Shown: in pieces, positions 37,965-63,782 of the stretch
Numbering within the stretch: position 1 is the first letter of the stretch
Layout of the letters: every line of letters begins with the position of its first letter
Assembly (NCBI GenBank): GCA_012840965.1
Contig: DUVQ01000121.1
Coordinates: 14,907-78,906, forward strand
Source: Oligoflexales bacterium
GTDB lineage: Bacteria > Myxococcota_A > UBA9042 > DTJE01
Direction of reading: 5' to 3'
DNA length: 64,000 nt
Program-made: the position numbers and the translations under genes
Notes under the pieces: generated by a model
Told to the model about the DNA's origin: nothing
Databases searched by the model: none
Seen by the model: the letters and a program-made list of their open reading frames with translations, nothing else

Positions 37965-38180
37965 CCTTTAACCCTCGTCGTCAGGGACAAGGATTCTATA
38001 GTCACAGCGCTAGTTGGTCAAACGCGGGCGAGTGCACCAGGATTATGTATGGTTAAATAGGGTGTTAAGCTTGATTGACAAAGATTCGCCGAGTCGCTAG
38101 CCTTCGCTGTATTTGTTTTTCTTTACCACATGGTAACAGCGCTTTTGAGCCGGAGTTTTGCCGTAACAAGGGGAAAGATA

Positions 38181-40721
38181 ATGCAAGATAAACTAAAAAG
38201 GGGCTTGGTGCCAGTGCTTGTGCTGGTGGGTGCACTGATTGCGTTGGGTTGCGGTGGCGGTAACGACGATGCAGTGTTTGGCAATGGCGAGATCGAGGGT
38301 GACGAGCGGTGTGACGGAGCTGAATTGAACGGTCAGACTTGCATTACCCAGGGCTTTGCTGGGGGCGAGCTTGCTTGTACTGCTGCCTGTCAGTTCGACG
38401 CTAGCGGCTGCACTGCGCCTTCGGCCGACTGCGGCAACGGCAAGATTGACGATGGCGAGCAGTGTGATGGCGAGGAATTGAACGGTCAGACTTGCATTAC
38501 CCAGGGCTTTGCTGGTGGTGATCTTGCTTGTACTGCTGCCTGCCAGTTCGACACCAGCGGCTGTACTGCGCCGCCAGTCGACTGTGGCAACGGCAAGATT
38601 GACGATGGCGAGCAGTGTGACGGCGAGGCATTGAACGGTCATTACTGCACGGATCTCGGCTTCGCTGGCGGTGATCTTGGCTGTTCTGCTGCCTGCCAGT
38701 TCGATACCAGTGGTTGCATCTTGGAGCCGGTCGATTGTGGTAACGGCAAGATCGACGATGGCGAGCAATGCGATGGCGAGGCATTGAACGGTTATTCCTG
38801 CGGGGATTACGGCTTCGCTGGCGGTGATCTTGGCTGTACTGCTGACTGTCGGTTCGATACCAGTGGTTGCACCTTGGAGCCGGTCGACTGTGGTAACGGC
38901 GAGATCGACGATGGCGAGCAGTGTGATGGCGAGGCATTGAACGGTCAGACCTGTGCGGATCACGGTTTCGCTGGCGGTGATCTTGGCTGTACTGCTGCCT
39001 GCCAGTTCGATACCAGTGGTTGCACTGTGCCGTTGGAGGACTGTGGTAACGGCGAGATCGACGATGGCGAGCTGTGCGATGGCGAGGAATTTGACGGTAA
39101 GACCTGCGCGACCCAAGGCTTCGACGGCGGTGATCTTGGCTGCACTTCGACTTGTCAATTCGATACAAGCGCCTGTTTCGTCTGTGGTGACGGTGAGGTT
39201 GGCGGTAACGAGAGGTGCGATGGTGACGATTTGAACAATCAGACTTGTACGTCCCAAGGCTTCGACGGGGGCCAGCTTCGTTGCACCATTGACTGCCAGT
39301 TCGATACAAGCGCCTGTGTCGTCTGCGGCGACGGTAGGGTCGGCGCTGGAGAAGAATGCGACAGCGCGAACTTGAATGGCCATGATTGTGTTAGCCAGGG
39401 CTTTGATGGGGGAAGGCTCGCCTGCACCGCCGACTGTGAGTTTGATACCAGCAATTGTAGCACCTGTGGTGACGGCGTTATCGGGATTGGCGAGCAGTGC
39501 GACGGTGTGGAATTGAACGGTCAGACCTGTGTATCGCAGGGCTTTGTCGACGGCAAGCTTGGCTGTACCGACACTTGCCAGTTCGACACCACTGCCTGCA
39601 GCGAGATTCCACCCGAGTGTGGTAACGGTAGGGTCGACGGTTTCGAGCAGTGCGACGGTGAAGATTTGAATGGTGAGACTTGCGAGACGCTGGACCTCAT
39701 TGATGGCAACCTTAGGTGTACCGATGATTGCCGGTATGACACTAGCCGCTGCGCCTTCGACTGCACCGCGGTATCGCTTGGGATGTTTGATGGCACGCCC
39801 ATCACGCTCACAAATCAAGACAGCTGCTCATCAGGCACTACGCTCTACGATGCAAAAGGCACTGGCAGGACCTGTACGGGCTGGGAGACCGCCGGCTCCG
39901 AGATCGTCTACAGCGTGAGCATTCCGCCAGGCGAGGGGATTTTCGTAGTCATGGATGCCATTGATAGTTTCAACGAGGCGCTTTGGGTGACGATGTCGTG
40001 TCGCGATACCATCGGCTTGCATTGTATCGTAGGGTCAGATGTCCAAGTCAGAGAACCTGAGGAGGTTTCTGTCAGGAACACCTCGAACAAAGCCTTGACC
40101 TACCACATCGTGGCCGACGCCCGCGACGGCTGCGGCAAGTTCAACCTGTCCATCTCAAGGCTTGGTGACTGCGGTGATGGTGTTCGCGAAGGTCCCGAAC
40201 AGTGCGACGGCCGCGACTTTGGGGTACATACTTGTGAGAGCATAGGCTTTGCTCCCGGTACTTTGAGATGCAACTCGGATTGCGAGTTCGATTTTAGCCG
40301 CTGTGGCTGCAAGGCTATCGACCTGGGGGTGTTTGACGGCACGACCATCGCACTGCAAGACCAGGGTGGCTGCCCAGGCTCCAAGCTTTACGATGTGGGC
40401 GGTGACGGCGGAAGCTGCCTTGATGCGCTATTTAGAACGCCCGGTGCAGAGGTCCTATACAAGCTGACACTTCCGGCCGGCGACACGGTCAAAATCGTTT
40501 CGACGTCCCACGGATTCGACGAGACGCTTTGGGTGACTACGTCGTGCTTGGATATCGGCGGCTCGCAGTGTGTTGTTGGTGCTGCGAAGTGGAATCAGCG
40601 TCCTGAGGAGGCCATTCTTTCGAACAACACAGGCAATGCCGCGACATACTACATCGTGGTCGACGCTAAACAACCCAGTGGTTGCGGTAAGTTTGATCTT
40701 AACATTTCAAGGCATCCGTAA
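38181..40721 (+). CDS. Lipoprotein with ~11 tandem Myxococcus-type cysteine-rich repeats (CGNGxIDDGEQCDGEELNGQTC...C-x-FD-SGC) and two C-terminal PPC-like beta domains
   Basis: Lipobox LIALGCGGG. The ~48 aa repeat units carry 6 Cys each, and the first units are nearly identical at DNA level. Start taken at the internal ATG with a GGGGAAAG RBS. Confidence 0.7.
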   Translation: MQDKLKRGLVPVLVLVGALIALGCGGGNDDAVFGNGEIEGDERCDGAELNGQTCITQGFAGGELACTAACQFDASGCTAPSADCGNGKIDDGEQCDGEELNGQTCITQGFAGGDLACTAACQFDTSGCTAPPVDCGNGKIDDGEQCDGEALNGHYCTDLGFAGGDLGCSAACQFDTSGCILEPVDCGNGKIDDGEQCDGEALNGYSCGDYGFAGGDLGCTADCRFDTSGCTLEPVDCGNGEIDDGEQCDGEALNGQTCADHGFAGGDLGCTAACQFDTSGCTVPLEDCGNGEIDDGELCDGEEFDGKTCATQGFDGGDLGCTSTCQFDTSACFVCGDGEVGGNERCDGDDLNNQTCTSQGFDGGQLRCTIDCQFDTSACVVCGDGRVGAGEECDSANLNGHDCVSQGFDGGRLACTADCEFDTSNCSTCGDGVIGIGEQCDGVELNGQTCVSQGFVDGKLGCTDTCQFDTTACSEIPPECGNGRVDGFEQCDGEDLNGETCETLDLIDGNLRCTDDCRYDTSRCAFDCTAVSLGMFDGTPITLTNQDSCSSGTTLYDAKGTGRTCTGWETAGSEIVYSVSIPPGEGIFVVMDAIDSFNEALWVTMSCRDTIGLHCIVGSDVQVREPEEVSVRNTSNKALTYHIVADARDGCGKFNLSISRLGDCGDGVREGPEQCDGRDFGVHTCESIGFAPGTLRCNSDCEFDFSRCGCKAIDLGVFDGTTIALQDQGGCPGSKLYDVGGDGGSCLDALFRTPGAEVLYKLTLPAGDTVKIVSTSHGFDETLWVTTSCLDIGGSQCVVGAAKWNQRPEEAILSNNTGNAATYYIVVDAKQPSGCGKFDLNISRHP

Positions 40722-40755: not shown

Positions 40756-41688
40756 ATGATTCGTCATGTAGACATAAAGCTGCATTATGCTTGTAATAAC
40801 CGCTGTATTCATTGTGTGATCGCAGATCAACGTGATGCGGCAATGGCCAAGAGGGGTAGGGACTTTCGGACTACATCCGAGGTCGTAGCCGAGTTGGTAG
40901 ATGCCGCCACTAAGGGATTCGATGTGGTTACCTTTACCGGTGGTGAGCCAACCTTAAGGCGTGACTTGCCTGAGCTAGTCCAGGCAGCGCACCAGCTTGG
41001 TTTAAAGGTTGGCCTTCAAACCAACGGTCGCGCCCTTTCCTATGCCGAACGGCGAAAGCGGTTGTCTGGTATGGGCGTTGTTTTTGTTGTGGCCATACAC
41101 GGCCCAGATCCAGAGATTCACGATTTGGTCACAGCATCTCCAGGGGCCTTTGAACAAACAATGCAAGCGATTAGGGGGCTTGTTGAAGCGGGTGAAAAAG
41201 TAACAGCCAAGATCGTTATATCCCAAGTAAACATGCGGCATCTACCTGCTTTAGCACAGCTCATGGTTGATACTGGGGTCAAAAGAATGAACCTGACCTT
41301 TCCACATGCGCTGGGTTTGGCTAGGCGTGGATTTGATTTTGTCGTGCCAAGATACTTCGAGGTTATGCCATTTGTACATGAAGCCATTGATATCTTTCAT
41401 GCGGATGGTAGAAATATTGTAACCGAGGCGATTCCGTTGTGCCTGCTTGGTCAACATAAGGACCTGGCATCTGAAAACCTTTATAGGGTGGCAATCAAAA
41501 GTGAAGTGCGACAGCTTGATCAAGACCCCAGAAACTGGAGCGATGACCGGACAGGGGATGGCAAGGCAAAGGGACCCCAGTGTGTCGATTGTGCGCTTAA
41601 CCAAGAGTGTGAGGGTGTCTGGAAGGAATACTACGATGCCTTTGGTGGTGATGAATTGATCCCGGTTACTTTGCATCCAAAGTCGTAG
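40756..41688 (+). CDS. Radical SAM enzyme with a C-terminal auxiliary Cys cluster (SPASM/twitch-like)
   Basis: CNNRCIHC (C-x3-C-x2-C). FTGGEPTLR glycine-rich SAM motif. C-terminal CVDCALNQEC. 310 aa. Confidence 0.7.
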   Translation: MIRHVDIKLHYACNNRCIHCVIADQRDAAMAKRGRDFRTTSEVVAELVDAATKGFDVVTFTGGEPTLRRDLPELVQAAHQLGLKVGLQTNGRALSYAERRKRLSGMGVVFVVAIHGPDPEIHDLVTASPGAFEQTMQAIRGLVEAGEKVTAKIVISQVNMRHLPALAQLMVDTGVKRMNLTFPHALGLARRGFDFVVPRYFEVMPFVHEAIDIFHADGRNIVTEAIPLCLLGQHKDLASENLYRVAIKSEVRQLDQDPRNWSDDRTGDGKAKGPQCVDCALNQECEGVWKEYYDAFGGDELIPVTLHPKS

Positions 41689-42366: not shown

Positions 42367-42450
42367 TGGTGCGAGAGGTGGGACTTGAACCCACACGGTG
42401 TTGCCACCAGAACCTAAATCTGGCGCGTCTGCCAATTCCGCCACTCTCGC
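42367..42450 (-). tRNA. tRNA-Leu (anticodon TAG), long variable arm
   Basis: Reverse complement: GCGAGAGTGGCGGAATTGGCAGACGCGCCAGATTTAGGTTCTGGTGGCAACACCGTGTGGGTTCAAGTCCCACCTCTCGCACCA. Confidence 0.75.
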
Positions 42451-42614
42451 AGACAAATGCAGCGAAAAGGTACATTAATTCAGGTAAAAGTCAATCTGAA
42501 ATTTTAAAACTGGGCATTTTTGCGTCCTTCATAATTTGACTAGACTTTGACTTAAACATGTGCGGTAATCACCAAAGTTGCTTGAATAGGTTATTGGTTC
42601 CGAAGGGGTGGCCA

Positions 42615-44660
42615 ATGAAAGTCTTGAAGTTCTTAGGCGCTTTGTCGTTAATGGTTGCCATTAGCGCAATGATTAGTTGTAGCGGCTCAGACCTGCCGCC
42701 CGACGTATCACCGGATGATTCCCCAGCCTTGGACGATGGTTCGCAGGATGATGGTTCTGATACTGCAGATCCACGTCCAGACTTGGATGACGACGCTGAC
42801 ACTGACACCGAAACTGACAGCGACGCGCCATGCGAGCAAAAGTGCGGTACTCGCGTCTGCGGCCCCGATCCGGTGTGTAAAGAGTCATGCGGGACGTGTG
42901 ATGCCCCATATGCCTGCAATGCTGACGGCCAATGTGAGTGCAAGCCACAGTGTGGTGACCGTCTCTGTGGCCCCGATCCGGTTTGCGAGAAGTCGTGCGG
43001 CGAGTGCGCACCTGGTCATAGTTGCGACTTAAATGGTCGGTGCCAGAAAGATGGCTGTGAAAAGGTATGTGGTAATCGCGTCTGTGGTCCCGATCCAGTT
43101 TGTCATCAGTCCTGCGGGTCCTGTGAGGCGCATGAAAAATGCAATGCTGATGGCCAATGCGAGTGCGTACCCCAGTGTGGTGAACGTAAGTGTGGCATTG
43201 AGCCAGTTTGTCAAACGTCTTGTGGCGTTTGTGAAGCTCCAAACAAATGCAATGAGCAAGGCCAATGTGAGTGCATCCCAGAGTGCGGCGAGCGCAAGTG
43301 CGGTGTTGACCCAGTTTGTGGAACGAAATCCTGTGGTATTTGCGGATTCTACGAAAAATGCAACGACCAATTTCTATGTGAGTGTGTGCCAGATTGCACC
43401 GGCCGCCAGTGCGGCCTTGACCCGATTTGTGGCACTGAGACCTGTGGTTACTGTGAGGCGCATGAGAAATGCAATTTGGTAGGTATATGTGAGTGCGTGC
43501 CCCAGTGTGGCGACCGTAAGTGTGGTATTGAGCCGGTTTGTCAAACGTCTTGTGGCAATTGTACCCCTCCAAACGAATGCAATGAGCAAGGCCAGTGTGA
43601 GTGCTCTCCAGACTGCCGCGGGCGCGATTGCGGCGTAGATCCAGTGTGTGGGCAATCCTGCGGCACTTGTCCTGAAAACTCCATTTGCAATCTTGATGGA
43701 CAATGTTTTGCACCATCGATTGTCTGCTCGGATGACTGGTGCTTGATTCCAGCAGGCACATTCGAGATGGGGGCTCCACAAGGCGAACCTGAATACCGTT
43801 TTGATGAGGGGCCAGTTCATTCAGTGACGATTAGCCGCTCTTTTTACATCAAACAGACTGAAGTAACTCAAGGGGAATGGCAGTCATTGATGGGAAATAA
43901 TCCATCAAATTTTCAGTCCTGTGGCAATAAGTGCCCAGTTGAGATGGTGTATTGGTACGACGCTGTCGCATACGCTAATGCCCTTTCTGAAACGCAAAGC
44001 CTTGAAAGTTGTTACACGTTAAGCAATTGCACAGGTGCACCTGGTACCGTCGGCTATAAATGTACGGTCGAGTTTAATGGTCTTGGCTGCACAGGTTATC
44101 GTTTACCTACCGAAGCTGAGTGGGAATATGCAGCGCGTGCAGGCGTTACTGGCCCAAGGTATGGCGACATTGATGCCATCGCTTGGCACAGTGGTAACAG
44201 TTTGAATAAGACTCGTGTAGTGGCTACAAGGACTGCTAACGCCTGGGGATTAAACGATGTGCTTGGCAATGTCTGGGAGTGGGTAAATGACTGGTATGGG
44301 CCAAACTACTACAGCAGCTGTTCATCGGGTTGTTCTGACCCAATAGGAATCGACGGTGGCAGTATGCGGGGGTATCGTGGCGGATCTTGGATGTCAAGCT
44401 GGAGGCAATTACGCCTGATGATGGCTCAGATACGACTCGCCCAGACATTGAGCCAATGTGTGAGCAAAACTGTGGTAATCGTGAGTGTGGTCCAGATCCG
44501 GTGTGTAAAGAGTCTTGTGGGACGTGTGATGCCCCATATTCCTGCAATGCTGATGGCCAATGTGAGTGCGAGCAAGAGTGCGGTGATCGCGTCTGTGGTC
44601 CTGACCCAGTTTGCGAAAAGTCCTGTGGCACCTGCGAAGCTGGTCATAGTTGTGACTTAA
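42615..44660 (+). CDS. Paralog 1: lipoprotein with acidic linker, 8 octa-Cys repeats (CG-R-CG-DPVC...CG-C...C-x3-GQCEC) and an FGE/SUMF1-like domain. The C-terminus is truncated or frameshifted into paralog 2.
   Basis: Signal/lipobox MISCSGS. FGE-domain motifs (WCLIPAGTFEMG, RLPTEAEWEYAARAG, RGGSW). After RGGSW the reading frame runs out-of-frame through the paralog 2 N-terminal region to a stop at 44660. Confidence 0.55.
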   Translation: MKVLKFLGALSLMVAISAMISCSGSDLPPDVSPDDSPALDDGSQDDGSDTADPRPDLDDDADTDTETDSDAPCEQKCGTRVCGPDPVCKESCGTCDAPYACNADGQCECKPQCGDRLCGPDPVCEKSCGECAPGHSCDLNGRCQKDGCEKVCGNRVCGPDPVCHQSCGSCEAHEKCNADGQCECVPQCGERKCGIEPVCQTSCGVCEAPNKCNEQGQCECIPECGERKCGVDPVCGTKSCGICGFYEKCNDQFLCECVPDCTGRQCGLDPICGTETCGYCEAHEKCNLVGICECVPQCGDRKCGIEPVCQTSCGNCTPPNECNEQGQCECSPDCRGRDCGVDPVCGQSCGTCPENSICNLDGQCFAPSIVCSDDWCLIPAGTFEMGAPQGEPEYRFDEGPVHSVTISRSFYIKQTEVTQGEWQSLMGNNPSNFQSCGNKCPVEMVYWYDAVAYANALSETQSLESCYTLSNCTGAPGTVGYKCTVEFNGLGCTGYRLPTEAEWEYAARAGVTGPRYGDIDAIAWHSGNSLNKTRVVATRTANAWGLNDVLGNVWEWVNDWYGPNYYSSCSSGCSDPIGIDGGSMRGYRGGSWMSSWRQLRLMMAQIRLAQTLSQCVSKTVVIVSVVQIRCVKSLVGRVMPHIPAMLMANVSASKSAVIASVVLTQFAKSPVAPAKLVIVVT

Positions 44661-46120
44661 ATGGCCAGTGTCAGGAAGACGGCTGTGAAAAGGCGTGCGG
44701 TGAACGCGTCTGTGGTCCCGATCCGGTCTGTGGGCAGCCTTGCGGCGACGATTGTCCAGCTCATCACAAATGCAACGACGAAGGCCAATGCGAGTGCGTG
44801 CCTCAGTGTGGCAACCGTAAGTGCGGTGATGATCCGGTCTGTGGGCAGCCTTGCGGCGACGATTGCCCAGCTCATCACAAATGCAACGATGATGGACAAT
44901 GCGAGTGCCAGCCTGAGTGTGGCGGGCGTGAGTGCGGCTATGATCCGGTCTGTGGGCAGCCTTGCGGCGACGATTGCCCAGCTCATCACGAATGCAACGA
45001 TGATGGCCAATGCGAGTGCCAGCCTGAGTGTGGCACCCGTGAGTGCGGCGATGACCCGGTTTGTGGGCAGCCTTGCGGCGATTGCCCAGCTCATCACGAA
45101 TGCAATGATGGCCAATGTCAGTGCGTACCCGACTGTTTGGGCCGTGAGTGCGGCCTAGATCCGGTCTGTGGTGTGCGGCCTTGTGGTATATGCACTGCTC
45201 CAGAGACCTGCTCATCCCAAGGAGTGTGTTGTGAACGAAACTGCACCGGTCGCCAGTGTGGTCCCGATCCTTCTTGCGGTGACTCCTGCGGTAGTTGTCC
45301 AATGTACTTGGTTTGCGAACCTAACAGTGGCCAGTGCGTTCCCCCGTATGTTGATTGCAATTCAGGATGGTGTTTTATCCCAGCAGGTACCTTTTTGATG
45401 GGTTCTCCTGAAGATGATCCAGAGCGTTATAACAATGAAGGTCCGACTTACATAGCGACGATTACCCGCGATTTTTATATGAGTCAGACGGAAGTAACTC
45501 AGGAACAGTGGGAGTCGGTGTTTCAGAACAATCCGTCTAGCACAACTGAATGTGGAGTAGATTGTCCTGTTGAGACTGTAAATTGGTTTGAAGCTGTTGC
45601 TTACGCGAATGCTCTTTCCGACAAGGAAGGTCGTGAAAAGTGTTACACGATAGAGGGTTGTTCTGGTAGTCCTGGAACGGGCCTCAAAAACTGTACAGTA
45701 ACCTATTCTAATCTGCTTGACTGCAAAGGTTATCGTTTGCCAACTGAGACAGAGTGGGAGTATGCAGCACGTGCAGGTACCTCTGAGCCTAGGTACGGCG
45801 AGGTGGACAGGATAGCTTGGCATGTAGGCAACAGTCAACGCACCTATCATCCAGTAGCTAAACTGTTACCTAATGCTTGGGGATTATATGACATGCTTGG
45901 CAACGTTTGGGAGTGGGTGCATGACTACTATGATTTCTACAATACCAGTATTTCCGGTGGGATAGACCCGTTAGGACCCTCGTGGGGCGCTGGCCGGGTT
46001 AGACGTGGCGGTGGTTGGATCTTCGATGCCAGGAACTCGCGGGCAGCTGACCGCAGCTACGACACGCCTGATACACGTAGAAGTTACATTGGCTTGCGCA
46101 TTGTAAGGACTGCGCCGTAG
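44387..46120 (+). CDS. Paralog 2: octa-Cys repeats plus FGE/SUMF1-like domain. It lacks its own signal peptide, and a TTG start is inferred.
   Basis: Its N-terminus DDGSDTTRPDIEPMCEQNCG aligns with the post-signal acidic region of paralog 1. Complete FGE-like domain ending GLRIVRTAP. Confidence 0.55.
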   Translation: MDVKLEAITPDDGSDTTRPDIEPMCEQNCGNRECGPDPVCKESCGTCDAPYSCNADGQCECEQECGDRVCGPDPVCEKSCGTCEAGHSCDLNGQCQEDGCEKACGERVCGPDPVCGQPCGDDCPAHHKCNDEGQCECVPQCGNRKCGDDPVCGQPCGDDCPAHHKCNDDGQCECQPECGGRECGYDPVCGQPCGDDCPAHHECNDDGQCECQPECGTRECGDDPVCGQPCGDCPAHHECNDGQCQCVPDCLGRECGLDPVCGVRPCGICTAPETCSSQGVCCERNCTGRQCGPDPSCGDSCGSCPMYLVCEPNSGQCVPPYVDCNSGWCFIPAGTFLMGSPEDDPERYNNEGPTYIATITRDFYMSQTEVTQEQWESVFQNNPSSTTECGVDCPVETVNWFEAVAYANALSDKEGREKCYTIEGCSGSPGTGLKNCTVTYSNLLDCKGYRLPTETEWEYAARAGTSEPRYGEVDRIAWHVGNSQRTYHPVAKLLPNAWGLYDMLGNVWEWVHDYYDFYNTSISGGIDPLGPSWGAGRVRRGGGWIFDARNSRAADRSYDTPDTRRSYIGLRIVRTAP

Positions 46121-46161
46121 TTTCTTGTGGAGAAGACCATAGTTTTGTTAAGGAGTATTAA

Positions 46162-48159
46162 ATGCGAGTCATGAAGTTTTTAGGCACGCTAGCGCTAGTT
46201 TTTGCAGTCAGCGCAATGACCAGTTGTAAGGGCTCAGACCAGCCTACCGACGTATTTCAGGAAATTCCCGCTGCTACTGACGATTCAGTGCAGGACGAAG
46301 GCGTGGCGGACGAAGGCGTGGCGGACGAAGGTGCGGCGGACGAAGGTGCGGCGGACGAAGGTGCGGCGGACGAAGGTGCGGCGGACGAAGGTTTGGCCGA
46401 CGATACTCCTGTTGACGATGGTTCAGATGTCACAGATTCAGGGGAAGACGCTGACGCAGAGGTGTCTTGCGAGCCAAAGTGCGAAGACCGAGTCTGCGGT
46501 CCTGACCCTGTTTGCAAAGAGTCCTGTGGTACCTGCGAGGCTGGTCACAGTTGTGACTCGAATGGCCAATGCCAGCAAGATGGCTGTGAAAAGGTTTGTG
46601 GTGATCGCGTCTGTGGACCCGATCCAGTTTGTGGCCAGTCTTGCGGCGGTTGTGATGCTCCATACGAATGCAATGACGCGGGCCAATGTGAGTGCGAGCC
46701 AAATTGCCATGGCCTTGATTGCGGCCCAGATCCGAAATGTGGTCAGTCCTGCGGCGGTTGTGATGCCCCATACGAATGCAATGACGCGGGCCAATGCGAG
46801 TGCGAGCCAAATTGCCATGGCCGTGAGTGCGGCAACGATCCGAAATGTGGCCTGTCCTGTGGCGGTTGTGATGCCCCATACGAATGCAATGACGCGGGCC
46901 AATGCGAGTGCAGGCCAAATTGCGAAGGCCTTGAGTGCGGCAACGACCCGAAATGTGGCCTGTCCTGTGGGACATGTACCACCCCAGCATTTTGCAATCC
47001 CCAAGGCTTGTGCGAGTGTACTCAAGAATGTGGCCTCCGCCGCTGCGGCCCTGATCCCATTTGTGGTCAGTCGTGCGGTACTTGTAGCTCTGGTTTTAGT
47101 TGTGATTTAAACGGGCTGTGTTCGCCAGATGAATGTGCAAAACAGTGTGGTACCCGCATCTGTGGTCCCGATCCAGTCTGCGGTGCATCTTGCGGTACTT
47201 GCGACTTTGGTTATAGGTGTGATGCAGATGGTCAATGTCAGCCAGATGGATGCCTGAAACAGTGTGATGGCCGTGTTTGTGGCCCTGACCCAGTATGCGG
47301 TCAAGCCTGCGGTAATTGTGTTGGAAGCCTAGTTTGCGACCTCAAAGGTAAGTGCATCCCCAACACTGCTAGGTGTGATGGTGATTGGTGCTTTATTCAA
47401 GCAGGTACTTTCCAGATGGGCTCTCCCAGTGGCGAGCTTGGCCGTTTTCGTAATGAAGGGCCAGTTCACACAGTCACCATTACACGTCCCTTTTACATAA
47501 AACAGTACGAAGTTACCCAGGGAGAGTGGAAGTCGATGTTTCACAACAATCCGTCTCGTTTCAGCACGTGTGGTGATGAGTGCCCAGTTGATCAAGTAAA
47601 CTGGTTCGAAGCCGTTGCCTACGCGAATGCTCTTTCCGAGAAGGAAGGTCTTGAAAAGTGCTACACGATAAGCGATTGTTCAGGAATCCTTGGTTCTGGA
47701 AATCCTGATTACGACCGCTATCAATGTACAGTGACTTATCCCAATCTGCTTGACTGCAAAGGTTATCGCTTGCCAACTGAGGCTGAGTGGGAGTATGCAG
47801 CACGTGCCGGTGTTCACGGGCCCAGATATGGTGAAATTTATTCCACGACGTGGTTTTCGGGAAACAGTTCCTGGCTTACTCATCCTGCAGGCGAAAAGAG
47901 TCCCAATAACTGGGGACTATATGATGTGCTTGGCAATGTTGAGGAGTGGGTGAATGACTTGTACGACGAATACTACTACTCTTCCTGTAATACCGGTTGC
48001 CAAGATCCTTTAGGGCCTGACAATAGTGATCTTCGCGTTCAACGTGGCGGCTGTTGGGCTAATAGCATCGACTCGGTGCGGTTGGCGGTTCGTGACGGTC
48101 TCTATCCTAGATTTCGTAATGATTACAGTGGGTTCCGTCTTGCAAGGACGGTTCCCTAG
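46162..48159 (+). CDS. Paralog 3: lipoprotein with (ADEG)n acidic linker, about 9 octa-Cys repeats and an FGE/SUMF1-like domain
   Basis: Lipobox AMTSCKGS, AAGGAG RBS, complete domain ending GFRLARTVP. The repeat DNA is nearly identical between units. Confidence 0.7.
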   Translation: MRVMKFLGTLALVFAVSAMTSCKGSDQPTDVFQEIPAATDDSVQDEGVADEGVADEGAADEGAADEGAADEGAADEGLADDTPVDDGSDVTDSGEDADAEVSCEPKCEDRVCGPDPVCKESCGTCEAGHSCDSNGQCQQDGCEKVCGDRVCGPDPVCGQSCGGCDAPYECNDAGQCECEPNCHGLDCGPDPKCGQSCGGCDAPYECNDAGQCECEPNCHGRECGNDPKCGLSCGGCDAPYECNDAGQCECRPNCEGLECGNDPKCGLSCGTCTTPAFCNPQGLCECTQECGLRRCGPDPICGQSCGTCSSGFSCDLNGLCSPDECAKQCGTRICGPDPVCGASCGTCDFGYRCDADGQCQPDGCLKQCDGRVCGPDPVCGQACGNCVGSLVCDLKGKCIPNTARCDGDWCFIQAGTFQMGSPSGELGRFRNEGPVHTVTITRPFYIKQYEVTQGEWKSMFHNNPSRFSTCGDECPVDQVNWFEAVAYANALSEKEGLEKCYTISDCSGILGSGNPDYDRYQCTVTYPNLLDCKGYRLPTEAEWEYAARAGVHGPRYGEIYSTTWFSGNSSWLTHPAGEKSPNNWGLYDVLGNVEEWVNDLYDEYYYSSCNTGCQDPLGPDNSDLRVQRGGCWANSIDSVRLAVRDGLYPRFRNDYSGFRLARTVP

Positions 48160-48261: not shown

Positions 48262-48648
48262 ATGAAACCGACGCCTTTTACAATTTTTTGCGGTTATTAC
48301 TTGGGATTGGATAAAGAATTCAATTACCGGTTTTTTAACCAGGACCAGTTGGCGCGTCATCTTGGGATCGACCCATCTGAGCTGCGCCACCTGATGGAAG
48401 AATACTATTTGACGCCTGAAATTGTGCGCCACGTGGACTACAATCTGGTAAAGGCTCATGCCACAGCCCAGGAAATAGTGACCTTTGGTGGTGGTGAAGA
48501 CATCAGGGTGTTTGCCAGGCGTACCTTTGAAGAATTCATCCAGGCGTTACAAAAGTACGACCCTACCAAAGACTTCGAAGGTGTGGATTATGACAACCTG
48601 TTTCCAGGTGATCCGCCTCCTGATGAAGACGATGATGTTGTTTTGTGA
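48262..48648 (+). CDS. Hypothetical protein (128 aa), acidic C-terminus, immediately upstream of the NifH-like gene
   Basis: ORF only. Confidence 0.3.
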   Translation: MKPTPFTIFCGYYLGLDKEFNYRFFNQDQLARHLGIDPSELRHLMEEYYLTPEIVRHVDYNLVKAHATAQEIVTFGGGEDIRVFARRTFEEFIQALQKYDPTKDFEGVDYDNLFPGDPPPDEDDDVVL

Positions 48649-48680
48649 CCCTGCATATTGATGGATCCAAGGAGGCAGTG

Positions 48681-49514
48681 ATGTCGCGTCCCAAAGCTAG
48701 GATGTTTGCGATGTATGGAAAGGGTGGGATTGGTAAATCCACCGTTTCATCCAACATATCGGCGGTACTGGCCAAGCAGGGTAAAAAGGTTTTGCATGTT
48801 GGCTGCGATCCCAAAGCAGATTCAACCCTTACTTTGCTGGATGGCCAACCAGTTAAGACAGTCATCCAAAAAATCGCTGGGCGCATCAGTTCCCCGGACG
48901 ACATCATCATGCCTGGGATATTGGGACTTTCTTGCATCGAGTGTGGTGGTCCTGAACCTGGGGTTGGGTGCGGAGGTCGCGGTGTTTCAAGGATGTTCGA
49001 GGTTTTGGATGACCTGGAATTGATTGAAGATGGCGAATATGACGTGGCCGTTTTTGACGTGCTGGGTGACGTCGTGTGTGGTGGCTTTGCGGCACCGCTT
49101 CGCCAGGGGCGAGCAGAACTGGTCTACATCGTTGTAAGCGAAAGCGTGATGGCGCTGTTTGCGGCAAATAACATCGCCAGGGCCATGAAACGTTTCGCTT
49201 CAAATGGAATTGCGCTTGGTGGATTAATAGTCAACCAAGCGGATGAGCACACCCCAATCGAAGGCCTACACAAGTTTGCCAAAGCTCTTGGGACCAGGAT
49301 TATTGGGGTGGTTCCGAGGGACCCTGCAATCAGAAAGGCAGAGGTGATGAAGCGCCCAGTTGTTGACATCGCGCCAGAATCAAAGGCCGCAGCTGTGTTT
49401 GCTGAACTTGCAAACGCCATAATGCAGGATTCTGTTGAAGCGCATCAGGTGCCAACGCCTTTTGACGATGCCGGTTTTGACGCCTTCATAGAACAGACGT
49501 TTGGACAGTCATGA
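48681..49514 (+). CDS. NifH/BchL-family ATPase (nitrogenase iron-protein-like); both [4Fe-4S] bridging Cys conserved
   Basis: YGKGGIGKST Walker A. CGGPEPGVGCGGRGV and DVLGDVVCGGFA match the NifH Cys97/Cys132 contexts. AAGGAGG RBS at the internal ATG. Confidence 0.8.
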   Translation: MSRPKARMFAMYGKGGIGKSTVSSNISAVLAKQGKKVLHVGCDPKADSTLTLLDGQPVKTVIQKIAGRISSPDDIIMPGILGLSCIECGGPEPGVGCGGRGVSRMFEVLDDLELIEDGEYDVAVFDVLGDVVCGGFAAPLRQGRAELVYIVVSESVMALFAANNIARAMKRFASNGIALGGLIVNQADEHTPIEGLHKFAKALGTRIIGVVPRDPAIRKAEVMKRPVVDIAPESKAAAVFAELANAIMQDSVEAHQVPTPFDDAGFDAFIEQTFGQS

Positions 49515-50581
49515 TGGACAGGCCTGGATTTGTGACTGGGGTGGCCTTGGTGGCCAACGCCGTAGCTCGGGAAATCTTCAAGGTGGATGCTTCACCTGAG
49601 GCTATTGAGGCGGTTCAGGCTGTTGTTGAACAGCATGACAGTAAAGGCTGGTGGGGCCAGATAGTTGGTGCTGACGCTTCGGGGCCTGGTTTTGACCTTT
49701 CGCGGTGTGAAAGTTCTGGAAATGATTGGGTGGACGGTTACCAAGAGGCCTTGACAGCTTTGGCCGCGGCTATTGAAGCTGTGCCCCTAGAACCAAATTC
49801 CATCGCTGTGGTTGGGATGCTCCTTGATCGGCGTGAAGCTGATCGTCGTGCTGATTATGATGAGTTGGCAGGCTACTTGGCCGCTCTTGGGTTGGATTTT
49901 TGCGGTTTTTTTCCCGCTTTTGATGTTGTGGATAGCTCCCAACTAAAGGACATCGCGCCTGCTTCAACCATTATTTCACTTCCTTACGGACGCAAAGCGG
50001 CGCACGCCATCTCAAAAAAAACTGGTGCCAAGCTCATCGAGCTGGACCTGCCAATTGGATTTGCCGGGACGAGCGATTGGATTAGCGAGGTGGCCCTTGC
50101 ATGTGGGCGTCAGCAGGCGGCTGAACAGTTGATCAAATCCAAACTTGGCTCAGCAGTACCAAAACTTGAATGGGTAGTCCCTTTTTGGTTGCTGCATCGC
50201 CGAATCTTGCTGGTTGGTGATGTCTACAAAGTTAAAGGTTGGGCCGAAGCCTTGCACGAATTTGGATGCAATGTCTTGGGCGCGATTTGCACCGGTGGAA
50301 ATCCAGCCAGCGCCCCAGATATCAACTGGATTGATAATATTCCTGATGACTTGGAAGTCGATTTAGTCATCGGAAGTCAAGTCGCCGAGGCCAAAGGCCT
50401 GCCATTTTTAGAAATGGGATTTCCAAATTTTGGTGAACATTTCATTTATTCCAGGCCAGAACTTGGTTTCGCAGGCACTCTTGCTACGGTGGAGGCGATC
50501 ATCAACAGGCTGGCCTTGACATCCGTGATGCGCCACTGGCCAGGCGGCAGGGTCAAGTTTGACCTTAGAAAAGATCCCTGA
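49511..50581 (+). CDS. Nitrogenase component-1-like (NifD/K/BchB family) protein of only 356 aa, lacking the N-terminal cluster-Cys domain
   Basis: The C-terminal DLVIGSQVAEAKGLPFLEMGFPNFGEHFIYSRPELGFAGT resembles the conserved NifD/K/E/N/BchB C-terminal Rossmann segment. ATGA overlap with the upstream stop. Confidence 0.5.
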   Translation: MMDRPGFVTGVALVANAVAREIFKVDASPEAIEAVQAVVEQHDSKGWWGQIVGADASGPGFDLSRCESSGNDWVDGYQEALTALAAAIEAVPLEPNSIAVVGMLLDRREADRRADYDELAGYLAALGLDFCGFFPAFDVVDSSQLKDIAPASTIISLPYGRKAAHAISKKTGAKLIELDLPIGFAGTSDWISEVALACGRQQAAEQLIKSKLGSAVPKLEWVVPFWLLHRRILLVGDVYKVKGWAEALHEFGCNVLGAICTGGNPASAPDINWIDNIPDDLEVDLVIGSQVAEAKGLPFLEMGFPNFGEHFIYSRPELGFAGTLATVEAIINRLALTSVMRHWPGGRVKFDLRKDP

Positions 50582-52450: not shown

Positions 52451-52500
52451 CGGGGCGGGGTGGGGGAGGCGGGGCCGGGAGCGGGGGCAGGGGCGGGGGC
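52451..52500. repeat. G-rich tract (GGGGCGGGGTGGGGGAGGCGGGGCCGGGAGCGGGGGCAGGGGCGGGGGC)
   Basis: Direct reading. Intergenic, 3' of the MopE-like gene. Confidence 0.75.
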
Positions 52501-54512
52501 TATTGGCAGGGCTGTACTTGGCTTCTTCTTACCGGCCTACATTCGTTGCCAACCTTGCTACAGGCGATAACGACAGTGCCAGTTTCCCCGCATTCTGGAA
52601 GGGGCTCTAGCCAGCCTTCAAGGTGAAGACATACAATTGTCCCCTCCAAACCGGTTTCTTTCCTGCAGTAGCCAGGTGAATACAACTCCTGCATCGTTTC
52701 TTTGCCGTCACAGTCGTAGTCGAAGTTGTTGCAGTTGTTTTTTGTGGCAAAGAAATCGGTGACGCCCCTATGTACCCTTGAGTCAAGGTCACAGCAATCA
52801 GTTGAGCTGGCCACGTACCCCGCTGGAGGTGTGTCTCTGCATTCACAAGCACTTGGCTCATTAAGTGCTCCGTATCCATCGCCGTCTCTATCTCGGTAGT
52901 AGGTTTTACATTTGAGCGAGCCCGGTTCGTCCGTCTCTCCGTCACAGTCGAGGTCTAGGCCAGAGCACATTTCAGGTCTTGCCTCATATTTCTGGGCGCA
53001 GTTGAGTGCACCGTCTATACAGGTCCACGTGCCCCATTGGCAAATACCAGGCTTACCAGTCTCACAATCTCTGCCATCTTGTGAAAAACTCTCGTCCGTT
53101 TCCCCATCGCAGTCGTTATCTAGGCCATCGCATTCTTCTGTCTCGACATCTTTTATCGGCCAACACCAAAGTTTACCACCTGAACAGTACTGCCTGCCGT
53201 ATTTACAAACACCAAGCATACCTGTGTCACAGTTTTGGCCATCATCAGAGCTATCTTCGTCTGTCTCCCCATCACAGTCGTTGTCTAGGCCATCACAGAC
53301 TTCATGGGACGATGGTGTTTTCGGTTCGCAAGCCAGTGATCCGTTTCTACACACCCGCTTGCCGTCTTTGCAAACACCATCCAAGCGTGTGTCACAATCT
53401 TGGCCATCTTCTGGAAAACTTTCGTCCGTCTCCCCATCACAGTCGTTGTCTAGGCCATCACAGATTTCATGGGACGATGGCGTTTTCTGTTCGCAAGCCA
53501 GTGCTCCGTTTCTACAGACCCACTTGCCGTCTTTGCAAACACCCAGTTTACCGGTGTCACAATTCTGGCCATCTTCAGGAACATCTTCATCAGTCTCGCC
53601 ATCACAGTCGTCGTCCAAGCCATTGCACTTTTCCACAGATGCCTGCGTTGTCTGGGTACAGACGAATGCCCCCCTAATACAGACCATGGTAGCCGCGCTA
53701 CAAACACCCAACTTGTCAGGAACTAGAACACAATCTTGACCACCCCCAGGGTTGTCTTCGTCAATTCGACCATCGCAGTTGTTGTCTTTACCATCGCAGA
53801 TTTCTTCAGTCGGTTGCTTAGTTTGGTTGCAAACAAGAGTTCCATCTTTACAAGTAGTTGTGCCAATTGCGCAGACCCCCTGCAATTCTGTGTCACAATC
53901 CTGACCACTCTCAGGATTGTCTTCGTCGGTCTGGCCATCGCAGTCATTGTCTTTGCCGTCACAAATTTCATCAGTTGGGTCGCCAGGAATGCATTCATTT
54001 AGCACACCATCGGTACATTTCGCGACTTCCCTGAAACATTCTCCGATGCCACAAGTTATGGTCTCACCATTGTCGGCCGGGGTGTTGGTACAGCCTGATT
54101 CGGGCTTGCAACTATCAGCCGTGCAAGGGTTTTTATCGTCACAATCAATAGCCGGGCCACTTATGCACTCACCATCCAAGCAAGTGTCCGGGCCGGTGCA
54201 CCGATCTCCATCAGAGCATGGCGCATCATTTTCCAGCAAGACTTCCGTGCATTCCTTATCAAGGCATTTGAACACGTGGCACTGCTTTGGCTGTTTGTCG
54301 CAGTCTTGATCAAGCTCACACGCGACAGGCTCGGTACTGTCATCATCTTCAAACGCGCCATCATCTCCGTGCTGGCCGCGGTCGTGTTTTGCATCTGTGG
54401 CCGATTTTGAGTCCAGGTCCAGGGCATCCGAATTATTCAAGTCACCACCCCCCTTACATCCCAAGGCCAAAGTGGCGACTATCAAAGGCAACAATGCTAA
54501 GCGCGGCTTCAT
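52500..54512 (-). CDS. Secreted lipoprotein with 7 or more MopE-type putative metal-binding repeats (CDGxDNDCDGxTDE) and Cys-rich C-terminal modules
   Basis: Lipobox LALGCKGG after the internal ATG (GAGGAA RBS). Repeated CDGKDNDCDGQTDED / CDGLDNDCDGETDES. Confidence 0.7.
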   Translation of the reverse strand: MKPRLALLPLIVATLALGCKGGGDLNNSDALDLDSKSATDAKHDRGQHGDDGAFEDDDSTEPVACELDQDCDKQPKQCHVFKCLDKECTEVLLENDAPCSDGDRCTGPDTCLDGECISGPAIDCDDKNPCTADSCKPESGCTNTPADNGETITCGIGECFREVAKCTDGVLNECIPGDPTDEICDGKDNDCDGQTDEDNPESGQDCDTELQGVCAIGTTTCKDGTLVCNQTKQPTEEICDGKDNNCDGRIDEDNPGGGQDCVLVPDKLGVCSAATMVCIRGAFVCTQTTQASVEKCNGLDDDCDGETDEDVPEDGQNCDTGKLGVCKDGKWVCRNGALACEQKTPSSHEICDGLDNDCDGETDESFPEDGQDCDTRLDGVCKDGKRVCRNGSLACEPKTPSSHEVCDGLDNDCDGETDEDSSDDGQNCDTGMLGVCKYGRQYCSGGKLWCWPIKDVETEECDGLDNDCDGETDESFSQDGRDCETGKPGICQWGTWTCIDGALNCAQKYEARPEMCSGLDLDCDGETDEPGSLKCKTYYRDRDGDGYGALNEPSACECRDTPPAGYVASSTDCCDLDSRVHRGVTDFFATKNNCNNFDYDCDGKETMQELYSPGYCRKETGLEGTIVCLHLEGWLEPLPECGETGTVVIACSKVGNECRPVRRSQVQPCQ

Positions 54513-54602
54513 CGCGGTTCCTCGGAACATGATGCTGGCGATTTTATAATCCATCCTTCGAGGATGCAATAAATCGGGGTGGTTAATAGCGAAAATTTTG
54601 TG

Positions 54603-54836: not shown

Positions 54837-55871
54837 ATGATTCGAGTCATTCAATGGGGACTTGGCGCCATGGGTAGTGGCATGGCCAAATTGATTTTGG
54901 AAAAGGATGGCTTGCAGCTGGTTGGCGCCATCGACACCAGACCTGAATATGCCGGCAAAGACGTCGGCAGTGTCTTGGGGCTTGGACGTGAACTCGGGGT
55001 CGAGGTCCAAGCCACCCCAGACGGCCTGCTTGATCCCGATGTGGCCGATATAGTCGTCATTGCAACCACTTCTTGGACTGCCCAGCAAATGCCCCAGCTA
55101 CGCCAGATTCTAGGCAGTGGCCTCAATTGCATCTCAATCGCCGAAGAAATGGCCTCACCTGAAGCTCAAAGTCCAGAATTGGCCACCGAACTTGACCAAC
55201 TGGCAAAAGCAAACAACGTTTCAGTTTTGGGAACTGGCGTCAACCCTGGTTTCGTCTTGGATCTACTTGTGGTCACTCTCTCCGGAGTTTGCCACAAGGT
55301 TGATCGCATCGAGGCCAGCCGCGTCAACGATTTAAGCCCTTATGGGCCAACAGTTATGGCGACCCAAGGAGTCGGAATCACCCCTGAGGCTTTTAAAGAA
55401 GGCGTCGCCAACGGCACCATCGTCGGCCACGTCGGCTTCCCCGAAAGCATCAGGATGATCTCGGACGCCCTTGGCCTAGGTGTTGATCGCGTTGTTGAAA
55501 CTCGTGAACCCATCGTGTCCAAGGTCCTGCGTGAAGCCGCCCACGTGACGGTTCAGCCCGGGATGGTCGCTGGATGCAAGCATATCGCGGTCGGATACGC
55601 AGGTGATAAGGCGGTTGTCAAACTGGTTCACCCCCAGCAGGTCCATCCGCATCTGGAAGGGCAAAGCACTGGTGACTACATCAACATCTATGGAACGCCA
55701 GATATTGTGATGTCCACCGGACCTGAAATTGCCGGTGGAATTGCAACCCAGGGGCTTGCAGTAAACATGGTTCCACATGTAGTCCAAGCAAGCCCAGGTT
55801 TAAAGAATATGTTGGACCTGCCGGCCCCAGCGGCGTTGATGGGGGCAAGCGCGTACAGGCGCAGAGTTTGA
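54837..55871 (+). CDS. ord: 2,4-diaminopentanoate dehydrogenase (DapB-like NAD(P) fold)
   Basis: 344 aa. N-terminal Rossmann VIQWGLGAMGSGMAK. Size and context match the Clostridium sticklandii ord-ortAB-oraSE cluster. Confidence 0.7.
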   Translation: MIRVIQWGLGAMGSGMAKLILEKDGLQLVGAIDTRPEYAGKDVGSVLGLGRELGVEVQATPDGLLDPDVADIVVIATTSWTAQQMPQLRQILGSGLNCISIAEEMASPEAQSPELATELDQLAKANNVSVLGTGVNPGFVLDLLVVTLSGVCHKVDRIEASRVNDLSPYGPTVMATQGVGITPEAFKEGVANGTIVGHVGFPESIRMISDALGLGVDRVVETREPIVSKVLREAAHVTVQPGMVAGCKHIAVGYAGDKAVVKLVHPQQVHPHLEGQSTGDYINIYGTPDIVMSTGPEIAGGIATQGLAVNMVPHVVQASPGLKNMLDLPAPAALMGASAYRRRV

Positions 55872-55885
55872 ACAAGGAGGGCGAC

Positions 55886-56197
55886 GTGGCTGTAGTCAAT
55901 AAAGGAACTTGGGTTGAGATTGAATCGGTGGTTTTAACGCCTGAAGAAAGGGCGCCTGGGATTCCGCCAGAAACTGCAAAGTGCCCCTTGGTTATGAAGG
56001 TTTCCGGGTTTTTGGCCAATGATGCCTCGCTGGGTGACGAAGTTCGCGTTTACACCATGATCGGGCGCCAAGTTAAGGGACGTTTGGCCACGATTAATCC
56101 TGGATATGACCACAGCTTTGGGTCCACGGTGTCAGAACTGCTGCAAATTGGACGGACACCTGATGTGCCTGCACAACAAGGAGGCCAAAATGACTGA
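55886..56197 (+). CDS. ortA: 2-amino-4-ketopentanoate thiolase alpha subunit
   Basis: About 103 aa. VAVVNKGTWVEIE aligns with the OrtA N-terminus (MKAKKGDWVQI). GTG start after an AAGGAGG RBS. Confidence 0.7.
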   Translation: MAVVNKGTWVEIESVVLTPEERAPGIPPETAKCPLVMKVSGFLANDASLGDEVRVYTMIGRQVKGRLATINPGYDHSFGSTVSELLQIGRTPDVPAQQGGQND

Positions 56198-57605: not shown

Positions 57606-57614
57606 GGGGCTTGG

Positions 57615-57965
57615 ATGAGTAGCGACAGGCAGCAGACGTTTAAGCAGCGACAGCTTGATAAGCTGACAGATGAGCAGCTAAAGGAACGCTTTTGGCAGCT
57701 TACCAATCAGATTGTTAAACCAATTGTTGAGCTTGCAAAAACTCACACAAGCCCATCCATTGAGCGGTCGATCTTGCTTCGAATGGGCATTGATTCGGTG
57801 TCAAGTCACGGCGTGGTGCAAAGGATTTTGGATGCTGGGCTGCTTGGAAAGGGGGCTGGGCACGTCCTTTTGAAACTGGCTCAAAGGCAAAACATCGACG
57901 TGCGAGCCGCAGCCCAACTTATTCTGGATGATGCCAGTGTTTTAACAGGGCTTTTTAAATCGTAG
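57615..57965 (+). CDS. oraS: D-ornithine 4,5-aminomutase subunit alpha
   Basis: 116 aa small subunit immediately upstream of the B12 subunit. Confidence 0.65.
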   Translation: MSSDRQQTFKQRQLDKLTDEQLKERFWQLTNQIVKPIVELAKTHTSPSIERSILLRMGIDSVSSHGVVQRILDAGLLGKGAGHVLLKLAQRQNIDVRAAAQLILDDASVLTGLFKS

Positions 57966-57974
57966 GGGGCCGTT

Positions 57975-60173: not shown

Positions 60174-60189
60174 ACTTGGTGGGGGTTTT

Positions 60190-61491: not shown

Positions 61492-61505
61492 ATAAGGAGA
61501 CTGAC

Positions 61506-63724: not shown

Positions 63725-63782
63725 TTCAAAACCTCCAATGGCGTACTCTAACGGCGGAATTTTGGCTTGCCAGGTGGATTCA

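Follow-up and report, generated by a model that had tools for sequence, protein, structure and literature searches.

A stretch of 64,000 nucleotides from an Oligoflexales bacterium (contig DUVQ01000121.1 of assembly GCA_012840965.1; referred to here as the window) carries three consecutive paralogous units on the + strand, g1, g2 and g3, which fill positions 42615-48159 and in which an array of cysteine (Cys) repeats is followed by a domain of the formylglycine-generating enzyme (FGE) type. The locus raises the question of whether such genes code for enzymes that mature sulfatases or for proteins with another role. Judging from sequence relationships and structure models, we lean slightly towards the second answer, in which the g1-g3 family would consist of N-terminally lipid-anchored extracytoplasmic binding proteins (adhesins or receptors) of an uncultured Myxococcota bacterium and not of sulfatase-maturing enzymes. 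A preliminary description of the locus had proposed three paralogs of one architecture, which holds for the tandem order, the eight Cys units and the FGE domain of each, but not for the ends of the genes: the triplication is real but degenerate, one deletion having harmed two of the three copies by truncating g1 at its 3' side and g2 at its 5' side, and g3 is the only intact copy. The coordinates of all these features are collected in Table 1.

The evidence that carries our reading lies in the head domain. In agreement with the preliminary description, a Pfam scan places an FGE-sulfatase domain (PF03781) after each array, with E values of 1.7e-42 (g1), 6.6e-45 (g2) and 4.4e-45 (g3), and the CxxxxC catalytic pair that had been reported missing is indeed absent, since in the phmmer alignment the C-H-D-S-Y-C of the S. 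coelicolor FGE (6MUJ) faces C-W-A-N-S-I in g3. The lone Cys of the g3 head is replaced by Ser in the second g3 allele and in g1, and by Gly in g2. Among PDB sequences, the best relative of the head is TvpA of Treponema denticola (2Y3C), at an E value of 3.2e-34 over ~230 residues, against ~1e-14 for true FGEs. An AlphaFold2 (AF2) model of the last repeat plus the head (predicted local distance difference test, pLDDT, 92.3; predicted template modelling score, pTM, 0.88) leads to the same relative: by Foldseek TvpA ranks best (E 2.5e-22, template modelling score, TM, 0.74; 0.68-0.74 across TvpA), followed by PvdO and then by FGE structures (E ~1e-16, TM ~0.62). Wu et al. (PMC5758913) describe TvpA as devoid of FGE activity and attribute to it a role in ligand binding, presumably exerted by its variable C-terminal residues. 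Because the closest relative by sequence and by predicted fold lacks FGE activity, a binding role of the g1-g3 heads appears better supported than sulfatase maturation.

The names given to these proteins point in another direction. The exact g3 protein is found in NCBI (HHW96998.1, MBP7161553.1 and others, under Myxococcota bacterium) and on more than 20 metagenome contigs, and NCBI labels it 'SUMF1/EgtB/PvdO family nonheme iron enzyme' or 'formylglycine-generating enzyme family protein'. Such labels would make g1-g3 members of the SUMF1/EgtB/PvdO superfamily of enzymes, with a substrate in the periplasm or outside the cell and the Cys repeats as a mere tether. The automatic names of NCBI and JGI agree with the strong Pfam match, PvdO is the second-best structural match with true FGEs next to it, and in one g3 allele a Cys lies close to the first catalytic position. 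However, the Cu(I)-binding Cys pair is lacking in all three copies, and that lone Cys is not conserved between alleles or paralogs. The N-terminal region is made up of signal, linker and Cys repeats and does not include the DinB-like domain of EgtB and OvoA. Also, the NCBIfam equivalog models PvdO, EgtB, GldK, GldJ, SenA and OvoA all remain far under their cut-offs (PvdO 73-99 bits against 500, EgtB 55-70 against 360, GldK 45-87 against 350, GldJ 35-40 against 458). Neither a sulfatase nor a pathway gene occurs among the called neighbours within 10 kb on each side or the window open reading frames (ORFs) that were scanned, nor is there a sulfatase gene beside the paralogs P0002 and P0003, the whole genome not having been scanned. 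Finally, conservation across the family is lowest in the region equivalent to the active site, the reverse of what is expected of a catalytic site. In sum, we consider an enzymatic role of this kind improbable.

At least two further paralogs (P0147 and P0150) lie elsewhere in the same 3.2-Mb genome. The dispersed paralogs are singletons in unrelated neighbourhoods, with no adjoining sulfatases, and no conserved partner gene was found adjoining either g1-g3 or the dispersed paralogs. One paralog is deposited under the NCBI organism name 'ADurb.Bin058'. The preliminary description had preferred a binding or scaffold role over sulfatase maturation. Binding is favoured through TvpA, but a scaffold function, in which g1-g3 would be structural lipoproteins built into an envelope machine, as GldJ and GldK/PorK are in the apparatus for type IX secretion and gliding, is disfavoured by the scores. 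It is true that GldK, GldJ and PorK are FGE-fold lipoproteins without FGE activity, that partial NCBIfam matches reach 74-87 bits and that PorK is among the PDB matches. Nonetheless, these bits are far below the cut-offs (350-458), the TM to PorK is ~0.46 compared with 0.68-0.74 for TvpA, no type IX secretion or gliding genes are present in the neighbourhood scanned, and dispersed paralogs of variable copy number with polymorphic heads would be atypical for the components of a machine. A scaffold of this type therefore seems to us very improbable, and the binding proteins proposed above continue to be our preferred reading.

The variation within the heads is concentrated in one place. We compared the window with the near-identical genomes L006 and L007 and found two g3 alleles that differ by 17 substitutions within a C-terminal patch of 106 nt, whereas the remaining 3.8 kb of g2 and g3 is identical. 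The substitutions (6 transitions and 11 transversions) change 11 amino acids and leave two codons with synonymous differences only. Patch positions fall on the highest-entropy columns of the family (mean 2.46 bits, against 1.73 for the domain; permutation p=0.008, 44 members), and in these 44 members no stretch of the head domain varies more than residues 634-658. Across dozens of contigs and samples, there are two discrete g3 alleles plus one minor variant. In the paralog P0002, only three residues vary in the region equivalent to the g3 patch. As allele B is the allele of a lineage of 95-97% identity, L006 and L007 look like recombinants between lineages. We read the patch as a specificity-determining face that evolves by diversifying selection and recombination.

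A different origin of the patch has to be weighed, given that FGE-type heads are the largest class of targets of diversity-generating retroelements (DGRs), many of them lipoproteins (PMC5758913, PMC4891356), and that the variable region of the TvpA-class targets sits at the C-terminus (PMC5758913). According to this explanation, the g1-g3 heads would be targets of an active or relict DGR, possibly a remote one; the 106-nt patch would have been rewritten by mutagenic retrohoming, and the breakpoint at the RGGSW motif of g1 would be a by-product of aberrant homing. Several observations are in line with it: the closest solved relative, TvpA, is a DGR variable protein; heads of the FGE-type C-type-lectin fold with C-terminal variable regions make up that largest target class; all of the substitutions between alleles, rich in transversions and dominated by amino acid changes, fall at the site equivalent to the variable region; and the g1 deletion breakpoint lies inside the equivalent patch.

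On the other hand, no copy of the patch resembling a template repeat was found in the 64-kb window (blastn-short) or in the 22-kb loci. When an invariant 26-mer of the patch was searched for, the genome collection gave no match and the metagenome contigs gave three, all of them g3 in situ and none a template repeat, the complete genome of the organism not having been scanned. Likewise, no reverse transcriptase or DGR accessory gene occurs among the called genes within 10 kb on each side, the window ORFs scanned or the neighbours of the paralogs; the complete genome was not scanned for these either. Two discrete alleles and one minor variant do not make up a cloud of variants, and the co-occurrence of allele B with the 97% lineage fits recombination between lineages. 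In addition, several variable sites are third codon positions, which implies template codons able to yield stops, and P0002 varies at only those three residues. We thus regard a DGR as quite improbable here, somewhat more so than an enzymatic role, and retain diversifying selection with recombination as our reading of the patch.

The stalk that precedes the head is made of a repeat that we could not assign to any known family. Each of the three genes contains exactly eight Cys-rich units (24 in total), which narrows the seven to nine copies of a ~36-residue unit given in the preliminary description, while the eight invariant Cys described there are confirmed. The unit has 35-39 residues with the pattern C-x3-C-x4-CG-x-[DE]-P-x-C-x3-CG-x-C-x5-C-x5-C; all eight Cys are invariant in 24 of 24 units, and the core CG-x-[DE]-P-x-C is conserved. 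Pfam-A and NCBIfam gave no match to the Cys arrays even at E<=10, the best hit among PDB sequences had an E value of only 3, and no PDB fold significantly matched a di-repeat model, in agreement with the earlier statement that the repeat belongs to no named family. The structure prediction suggested at that time was made with AF2 on the 19 overlapping unit pairs of the window and reached a pLDDT of 93.3 with only short beta-bridges, a combination that would be typical of small disulfide-knotted modules. When the repeat was set against EGF, laminin EGF, furin-like, Dicty_CTDC, MopE and TIGR02232 modules, it fitted no family profile or fold. Because the Cys count is even and invariant and the context is extracytoplasmic, the Cys residues would be disulfide-bonded, with four disulfides per unit.

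The near-identity of the units at the nucleotide level that had been described was not recovered. Over 276 pairs, mean identity is 0.62 within genes and 0.61 between genes, and only five pairs reach at least 85% (1.1/2.1, 1.4/1.7, 2.4/2.5, 2.5/2.6 and 3.3/3.4; maximum 92%). The recent expansion or concerted evolution deduced from it stands only in part: recent duplication is confined to two sub-arrays, one in g2 and one in g3 (Table 1), and is accompanied by changes in copy number, but it does not extend over the arrays as a whole. The variation in copy number between strains that was to be looked for does exist. The linker of g3, acidic and of low complexity as previously stated for the linkers, includes a 15-nt microsatellite that encodes (DEGxA)n, and an alignment of cluster members shows its copy number to vary between strains, giving forms of 665, 660 and 655 aa. 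A further g3 variant of 619 aa (P0133) lacks one whole Cys unit, and the paralog P0002/P0147 has forms of 516 and 542 aa with differing repeat content. Repeat copy number is therefore dynamic between strains and paralogs.

With a profile of the repeat, the number of representative proteins matched is 1,672 at E<=1e-3 and falls to 578 at E<=1e-10 and to 83 at E<=1e-30; among the matches listed, the proteins have from 153 to 3,587 residues and up to 26 matched stretches each. A degenerate DNA pattern for CGPDPxCGx[ST]CGxC was found at more than 113 loci, nearly all of them in Myxococcota or 'Deltaproteobacteria' metagenome-assembled genomes, with Myxococcales, Polyangiaceae, Bradymonadales and Anaeromyxobacteraceae among the matches listed. 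In 70 repeat proteins, the partner domains include FGE-sulfatase (10) and Lcl_C/DUF1566 (4), the latter being the other lectin-type domain targeted by DGRs, together with CarboxypepD_reg, PPC, LTD, CBM96, GH16, VWA, FG-GAP and others. Such a range of partners would be the behaviour of a generic extracellular spacer module. The preliminary description had recorded neither that the repeat is widespread in Myxococcota, nor that the head is TvpA-like, nor that allelic divergence is focused in the C-terminal patch of g3.

Proteins with 64 Cys each and CG-rich motifs could also be imagined to bind metals through their repeats, in the manner of metallothioneins or of Zn, Cu or Fe-S ribbons, and so to sequester or sense metals. 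The host appears to be anaerobic and neighbouring Cys-rich proteins weakly match the 'putative metal-binding' motif of MopE, both of which would suit this idea. The repeat itself speaks against it: the Cys number is even and invariant (8), the spacing is fixed and Gly and Pro are conserved, as in EGF-like disulfide knots, while no ligand patterns of His or Asp and no Pfam ferredoxin, zinc-ribbon or metallothionein match were found. Furthermore, the repeat was seen only in secreted or extracellular architectures among the 70 proteins examined for partner domains, and its structural neighbours, weak and non-significant, are all disulfide-rich EGF or furin-like modules. Metal binding by the stalk, like enzymatic activity of the head, is to our mind improbable, and a disulfide-rich spacer remains the preferred reading of the repeat.

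At the membrane end, the lipoprotein signal claimed for all three paralogs is present in g1 and g3, but g2 has no signal peptide. The signals were read by eye, with no predictor. Those of g1 (MKVLKFLGALSLMVAISAMISC) and g3 (MRVMKFLGTLALVFAVSAMTSC) have an n-region containing K or R, then a hydrophobic core and then the lipobox, so that g1 reads MKVLKFLGALSLMVAISAMIS and g3 reads MRVMKFLGTLALVFAVSAMTS before the lipobox C. The lipobox pattern [LVI..][ASTVI][GAS]C fits both g1 (...ISAMIS+C) and g3 (...VSAMTS+C), with the Cys at residue 22 in each, a Lys at +2 in g3 and a Ser at +2 in g1. An AAGGAG lies in the 41-nt spacer ahead of the ATG of g3.

The other two copies are joined in an unusual way. 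Homology in g1 ends at ...RGYRGGSW (TGG at 44388-44390), so that its FGE domain spans only positions 3-230 of the 255 in the Pfam profile and the last ~35 residues of the domain are gone. From there the reading frame runs out of frame for ~90 codons through the first g2 repeats up to a stop at 44660, while P0004, a homolog of g1, continues for ~33 aa beyond RGGSW. The g2 ORF begins at a TTG that lies within g1, is read in the -1 frame of that gene and falls in a remnant of linker; no signal peptide, start codon context or evident ribosome-binding site was found for it, and its first residues, DVKLEAITPDDGSDTT, match the post-lipobox linkers of g3 (TDVFQEIPAATDDS) and P0002 (TDVLPDNSPATDEGSDTT). 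Since g1 stops at RGGSW, g2 starts as linker and the homologs go on for ~33 residues, we conclude that one deletion joined the 3' part of g1, out of frame, to the 5' part of g2. Its size, ~240 nt, is an estimate from the comparison of paralogs, by which g1 would have lost its final ~35 codons and g2 its signal peptide, together with the spacer between the two genes. We infer that g2 is probably a 5'-truncated pseudogene, and g1 codes for a stalk with a C-terminally damaged head.

An assembly artefact at the junction was considered and rejected. Six independent assemblies (L002-L007, from JGI, ENA and NCBI, one of them a single contig of 3.2 Mb) are identical, colinear and gap-free across it at 99.8-99.97% identity, and their agreement establishes that the junction is real. 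A programmed -1 frameshift between g1 and g2 was rejected as well, as no X XXY YYZ slippery heptamer is present in 44339-44660. In a further contig covering the same locus (L126; ENA ERZ2647912 NODE_2275, coverage 3x), many indels give rise to chimeric gene calls such as P0014, in which g2 is joined to an ORF of another frame; artefacts of this kind are present among the database entries for this repeat-rich locus. P0014 as a sign of a further frameshift in g2 was rejected, given that its source contig has 3x coverage and is rich in indels.

Outside the g3 patch, all 10 single-nucleotide polymorphisms (SNPs) that separate the window from L003, L004, L006 and L007 fall in g1, between 42890 and 44225, and g2 and g3 have none. 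They affect seven codons synonymously and two nonsynonymously. The restriction of SNPs to g1 suggests mosaic recombination or a separate history of this gene, and their pattern hints at continuing constraint.

The following picture is consistent with these results. Gene duplication gave rise to the tandem array, and a later deletion, estimated at ~240 nt, brought g1 and g2 together out of frame, leaving g3 as the sole complete gene, g2 probably dead and g1 as a stalk with a damaged head. In g3, from the membrane outward, the lipobox Cys would take the lipid anchor, followed by a flexible acidic tether and by a rod of eight small Cys-rich modules, with four disulfides per 36-aa unit, that would act as a rigid spacer of adjustable length. 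At the tip, presumably exposed at the surface, the C-terminal TvpA-like head would present its FGE-type C-type-lectin fold, and its last ~35 residues may form the ligand-binding face. As these residues are the most different between paralogs and alleles, they probably set the specificity.

Some points weigh against such binding proteins. FGE-fold enzymes or enzyme partners without the Cys pair exist (EgtB, OvoA, PvdO), and therefore its absence is no proof of non-catalysis. The host looks like an anaerobic fermenter, and 64 Cys per protein would need an oxidative folding machinery. By the rule known from M. xanthus, a Lys at +2, as in g3, may mean retention in the inner membrane rather than display at the surface. 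Moreover, the SNPs of g1 are mostly synonymous (seven of nine codons), so the truncated gene may still be functional and not a simple pseudogene.

A broader proposal can be made only tentatively, and as a whole we hold it to be unlikely, if less so than the alternatives discussed above. In it, the octa-Cys unit would be an undescribed small disulfide-rich fold that serves Myxococcota as a stalk of adjustable length, and the g1-g3 family would serve at the cell surface to recognise prey, kin or substrate through polymorphic heads. Their binding face, which DGRs rewrite in proteins of the TvpA type, would here be diversified without a retroelement, by allelic and paralog recombination under diversifying selection, or else by a DGR located elsewhere in the genome.

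Table 1. Features of the g1-g3 locus, in positions of the 64,000-nucleotide window
Feature	Positions	Strand	Details
tRNA-Leu (anticodon tag)	42367..42450	-	ARAGORN; Rfam tRNA 57 bits
Spacer upstream of g1	42451..42614		164 nt, 38% GC; AAGGGG ahead of the ATG at 42615
g1	42615..44660	+	681-codon ORF; lipoprotein signal (Cys22 at 42678-42680), acidic linker (42681-42830), 8 Cys units (42831-43706), truncated FGE-fold domain (43731 to ~44390), out-of-frame tail (44391-44660)
Deletion junction	44385..44398	+	FGE end of g1 (TCT TGG) abuts post-lipobox linker of g2 (GAT GTC AAG = DVK), -1 frame
g2	44387..46120	+	577-codon ORF; residual linker (44390-44458), 8 Cys units (44459-45334), complete FGE-fold domain (45365-46108)
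Recent tandem array, g2 units 4-6	44720..45171	+	TRF; 87% matches
g3	46162..48159	+	665 aa; lipoprotein signal (Cys22 at 46225-46227), acidic linker (46228-46464), 8 Cys units (46468-47355), FGE-fold domain (47383-48147)
15-nt microsatellite, (DEG[AV]A)n in g3 linker	46279..46403	+	TRF
Recent tandem duplication, g3 units 2/3-5	46630..46967	+	TRF; 108-nt period, 92% matches; one unit absent from P0133
Hypervariable C-terminal patch of g3 head	48022..48127	+	Aligned to the C-terminal stretch of TvpA

With regard to the surroundings of the locus, the array does begin right after a tRNA-Leu and an AT-rich spacer, as had been described, but the tRNA is encoded on the strand opposite to g1-g3. A scan for promoters and terminators gave no enrichment beyond shuffled sequences, the spacer included, and an Rfam scan of the whole window matched three tRNAs and nothing else. 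The window is core chromosome, a region of ribosomal protein, elongation factor G and SecY genes together with genes of lysine fermentation. The latter lie in 54837-64000 and in L002-L007 and comprise DAP_DH-like, OrtA and PALP/OrtB-like genes and lysine/ornithine aminomutase subunits with a B12-binding domain; they point to an anaerobic, amino-acid-fermenting lifestyle of this Myxococcota lineage.

The genome is unusually rich in Cys-repeat envelope proteins. Just upstream of the locus, 38130-40721 (+) encodes a large secreted protein (an ORF of 863 aa, 846 aa in other calls) with ~11 tandem acidic Cys-rich repeats of ~51 aa (CGNGxIDDGEQCDGExLNGxxC...) followed by two C-terminal domains of ~130 aa. 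Its repeat array has a 153-nt period, with 5.7 copies at 84% plus more diverged ones; it has no Pfam match and only a faint match to TIGR02232 (E 7), and is a second, different uncurated Cys repeat beside g1-g3. Between the two Cys-repeat loci, 40756-41688 (+) encodes a radical SAM protein that has a CxxxCxxC motif, is Cys-rich at its C-terminus and has HxsC4/HxsC-like maturases as its best matches (134 bits against a cut-off of 500). A possible link of this gene to anaerobic sulfatase maturation (anSME) or to Cys cross-linking was considered: it is not an anSME, the HxsC-like match is below threshold and no precursor evidence was found. Two other Cys-rich secreted proteins, at 52500-54569 (-) and 1402-2973 (+), match the Dicty_CTDC and MopE 'putative metal-binding' motifs, and the former is polymorphic in length (646, 670 and 684 aa across L002-L007). 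Directly downstream of g3 and of an orphan ORF of 128 aa, 48645-50581 (+) holds a NifH/CfbC-like ATPase (neither its match to nifH, E 2e-86, nor that to CfbC, E 3e-84, reaches the cut-off) overlapping a weakly NifD/K/BchN-like (Oxidored_nitro) gene, a pair that forms a nitrogenase-like two-component reductase.

These results have some practical implications. On this evidence, the database labels 'formylglycine-generating enzyme' and 'nonheme iron enzyme' are misleading for many Myxococcota envelope proteins that resemble binding heads of the TvpA type. Being widespread, confidently foldable, absent from Pfam and NCBIfam and without a PDB neighbour, the octa-Cys stalk repeat is a good candidate both for a new domain family and for structure determination. 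The two-allele patch at the position of the TvpA variable region makes it possible to ask, in a natural setting, whether ordinary recombination and selection, besides retroelements, diversify the binding faces of C-type lectins. FGE-fold binding lipoproteins and Cys-rich spacer repeats were known already, while the octa-Cys repeat itself and its combination of stalk and head are uncurated; no new class of mechanism is indicated by the locus.

Among known systems, TvpA is the nearest. It shares with the g1-g3 family the lipoprotein signal, the lack of the FGE catalytic pair, the C-terminal scaffold motif RGGSW...R.A.R....P......GFRLAR and the concentration of sequence divergence in the C-terminal stretch. 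Unlike them, TvpA has no Cys-repeat stalk, whereas here an octa-Cys array of 300 residues and an acidic tether stand between anchor and head; also, we found here only two discrete alleles and, in the sequences scanned, no template repeat, reverse transcriptase or Avd. With FGE proper (SUMF1 and the Cu-dependent bacterial enzymes, 6MUJ and 6S07), the family shares PF03781 membership and the overall fold, but the two Cu(I)-binding catalytic Cys and any sulfatase context are missing, the sequences are far closer to TvpA, and the region equivalent to the active site is the most variable part. For the stalk, the EGF-like, laminin-type EGF and furin-like repeats of eukaryotes and the TIGR02232 repeats of Myxococcota are likewise short tandem modules with six to eight invariant Cys, and they act as rigid spacers in extracellular proteins, like the stalk proposed here. 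Finally, TraA, the kin-recognition receptor of Myxococcus xanthus, likewise unites a polymorphic domain for recognition with Cys-rich repeats and an anchor of the membrane or lipid type (PMC13184517). The likeness is only an analogy: TraA has the opposite orientation, with an N-terminal PA14-like variable domain and a C-terminal MYXO-CTERM anchor, and both its head fold and its Cys repeat differ from those of g1-g3.

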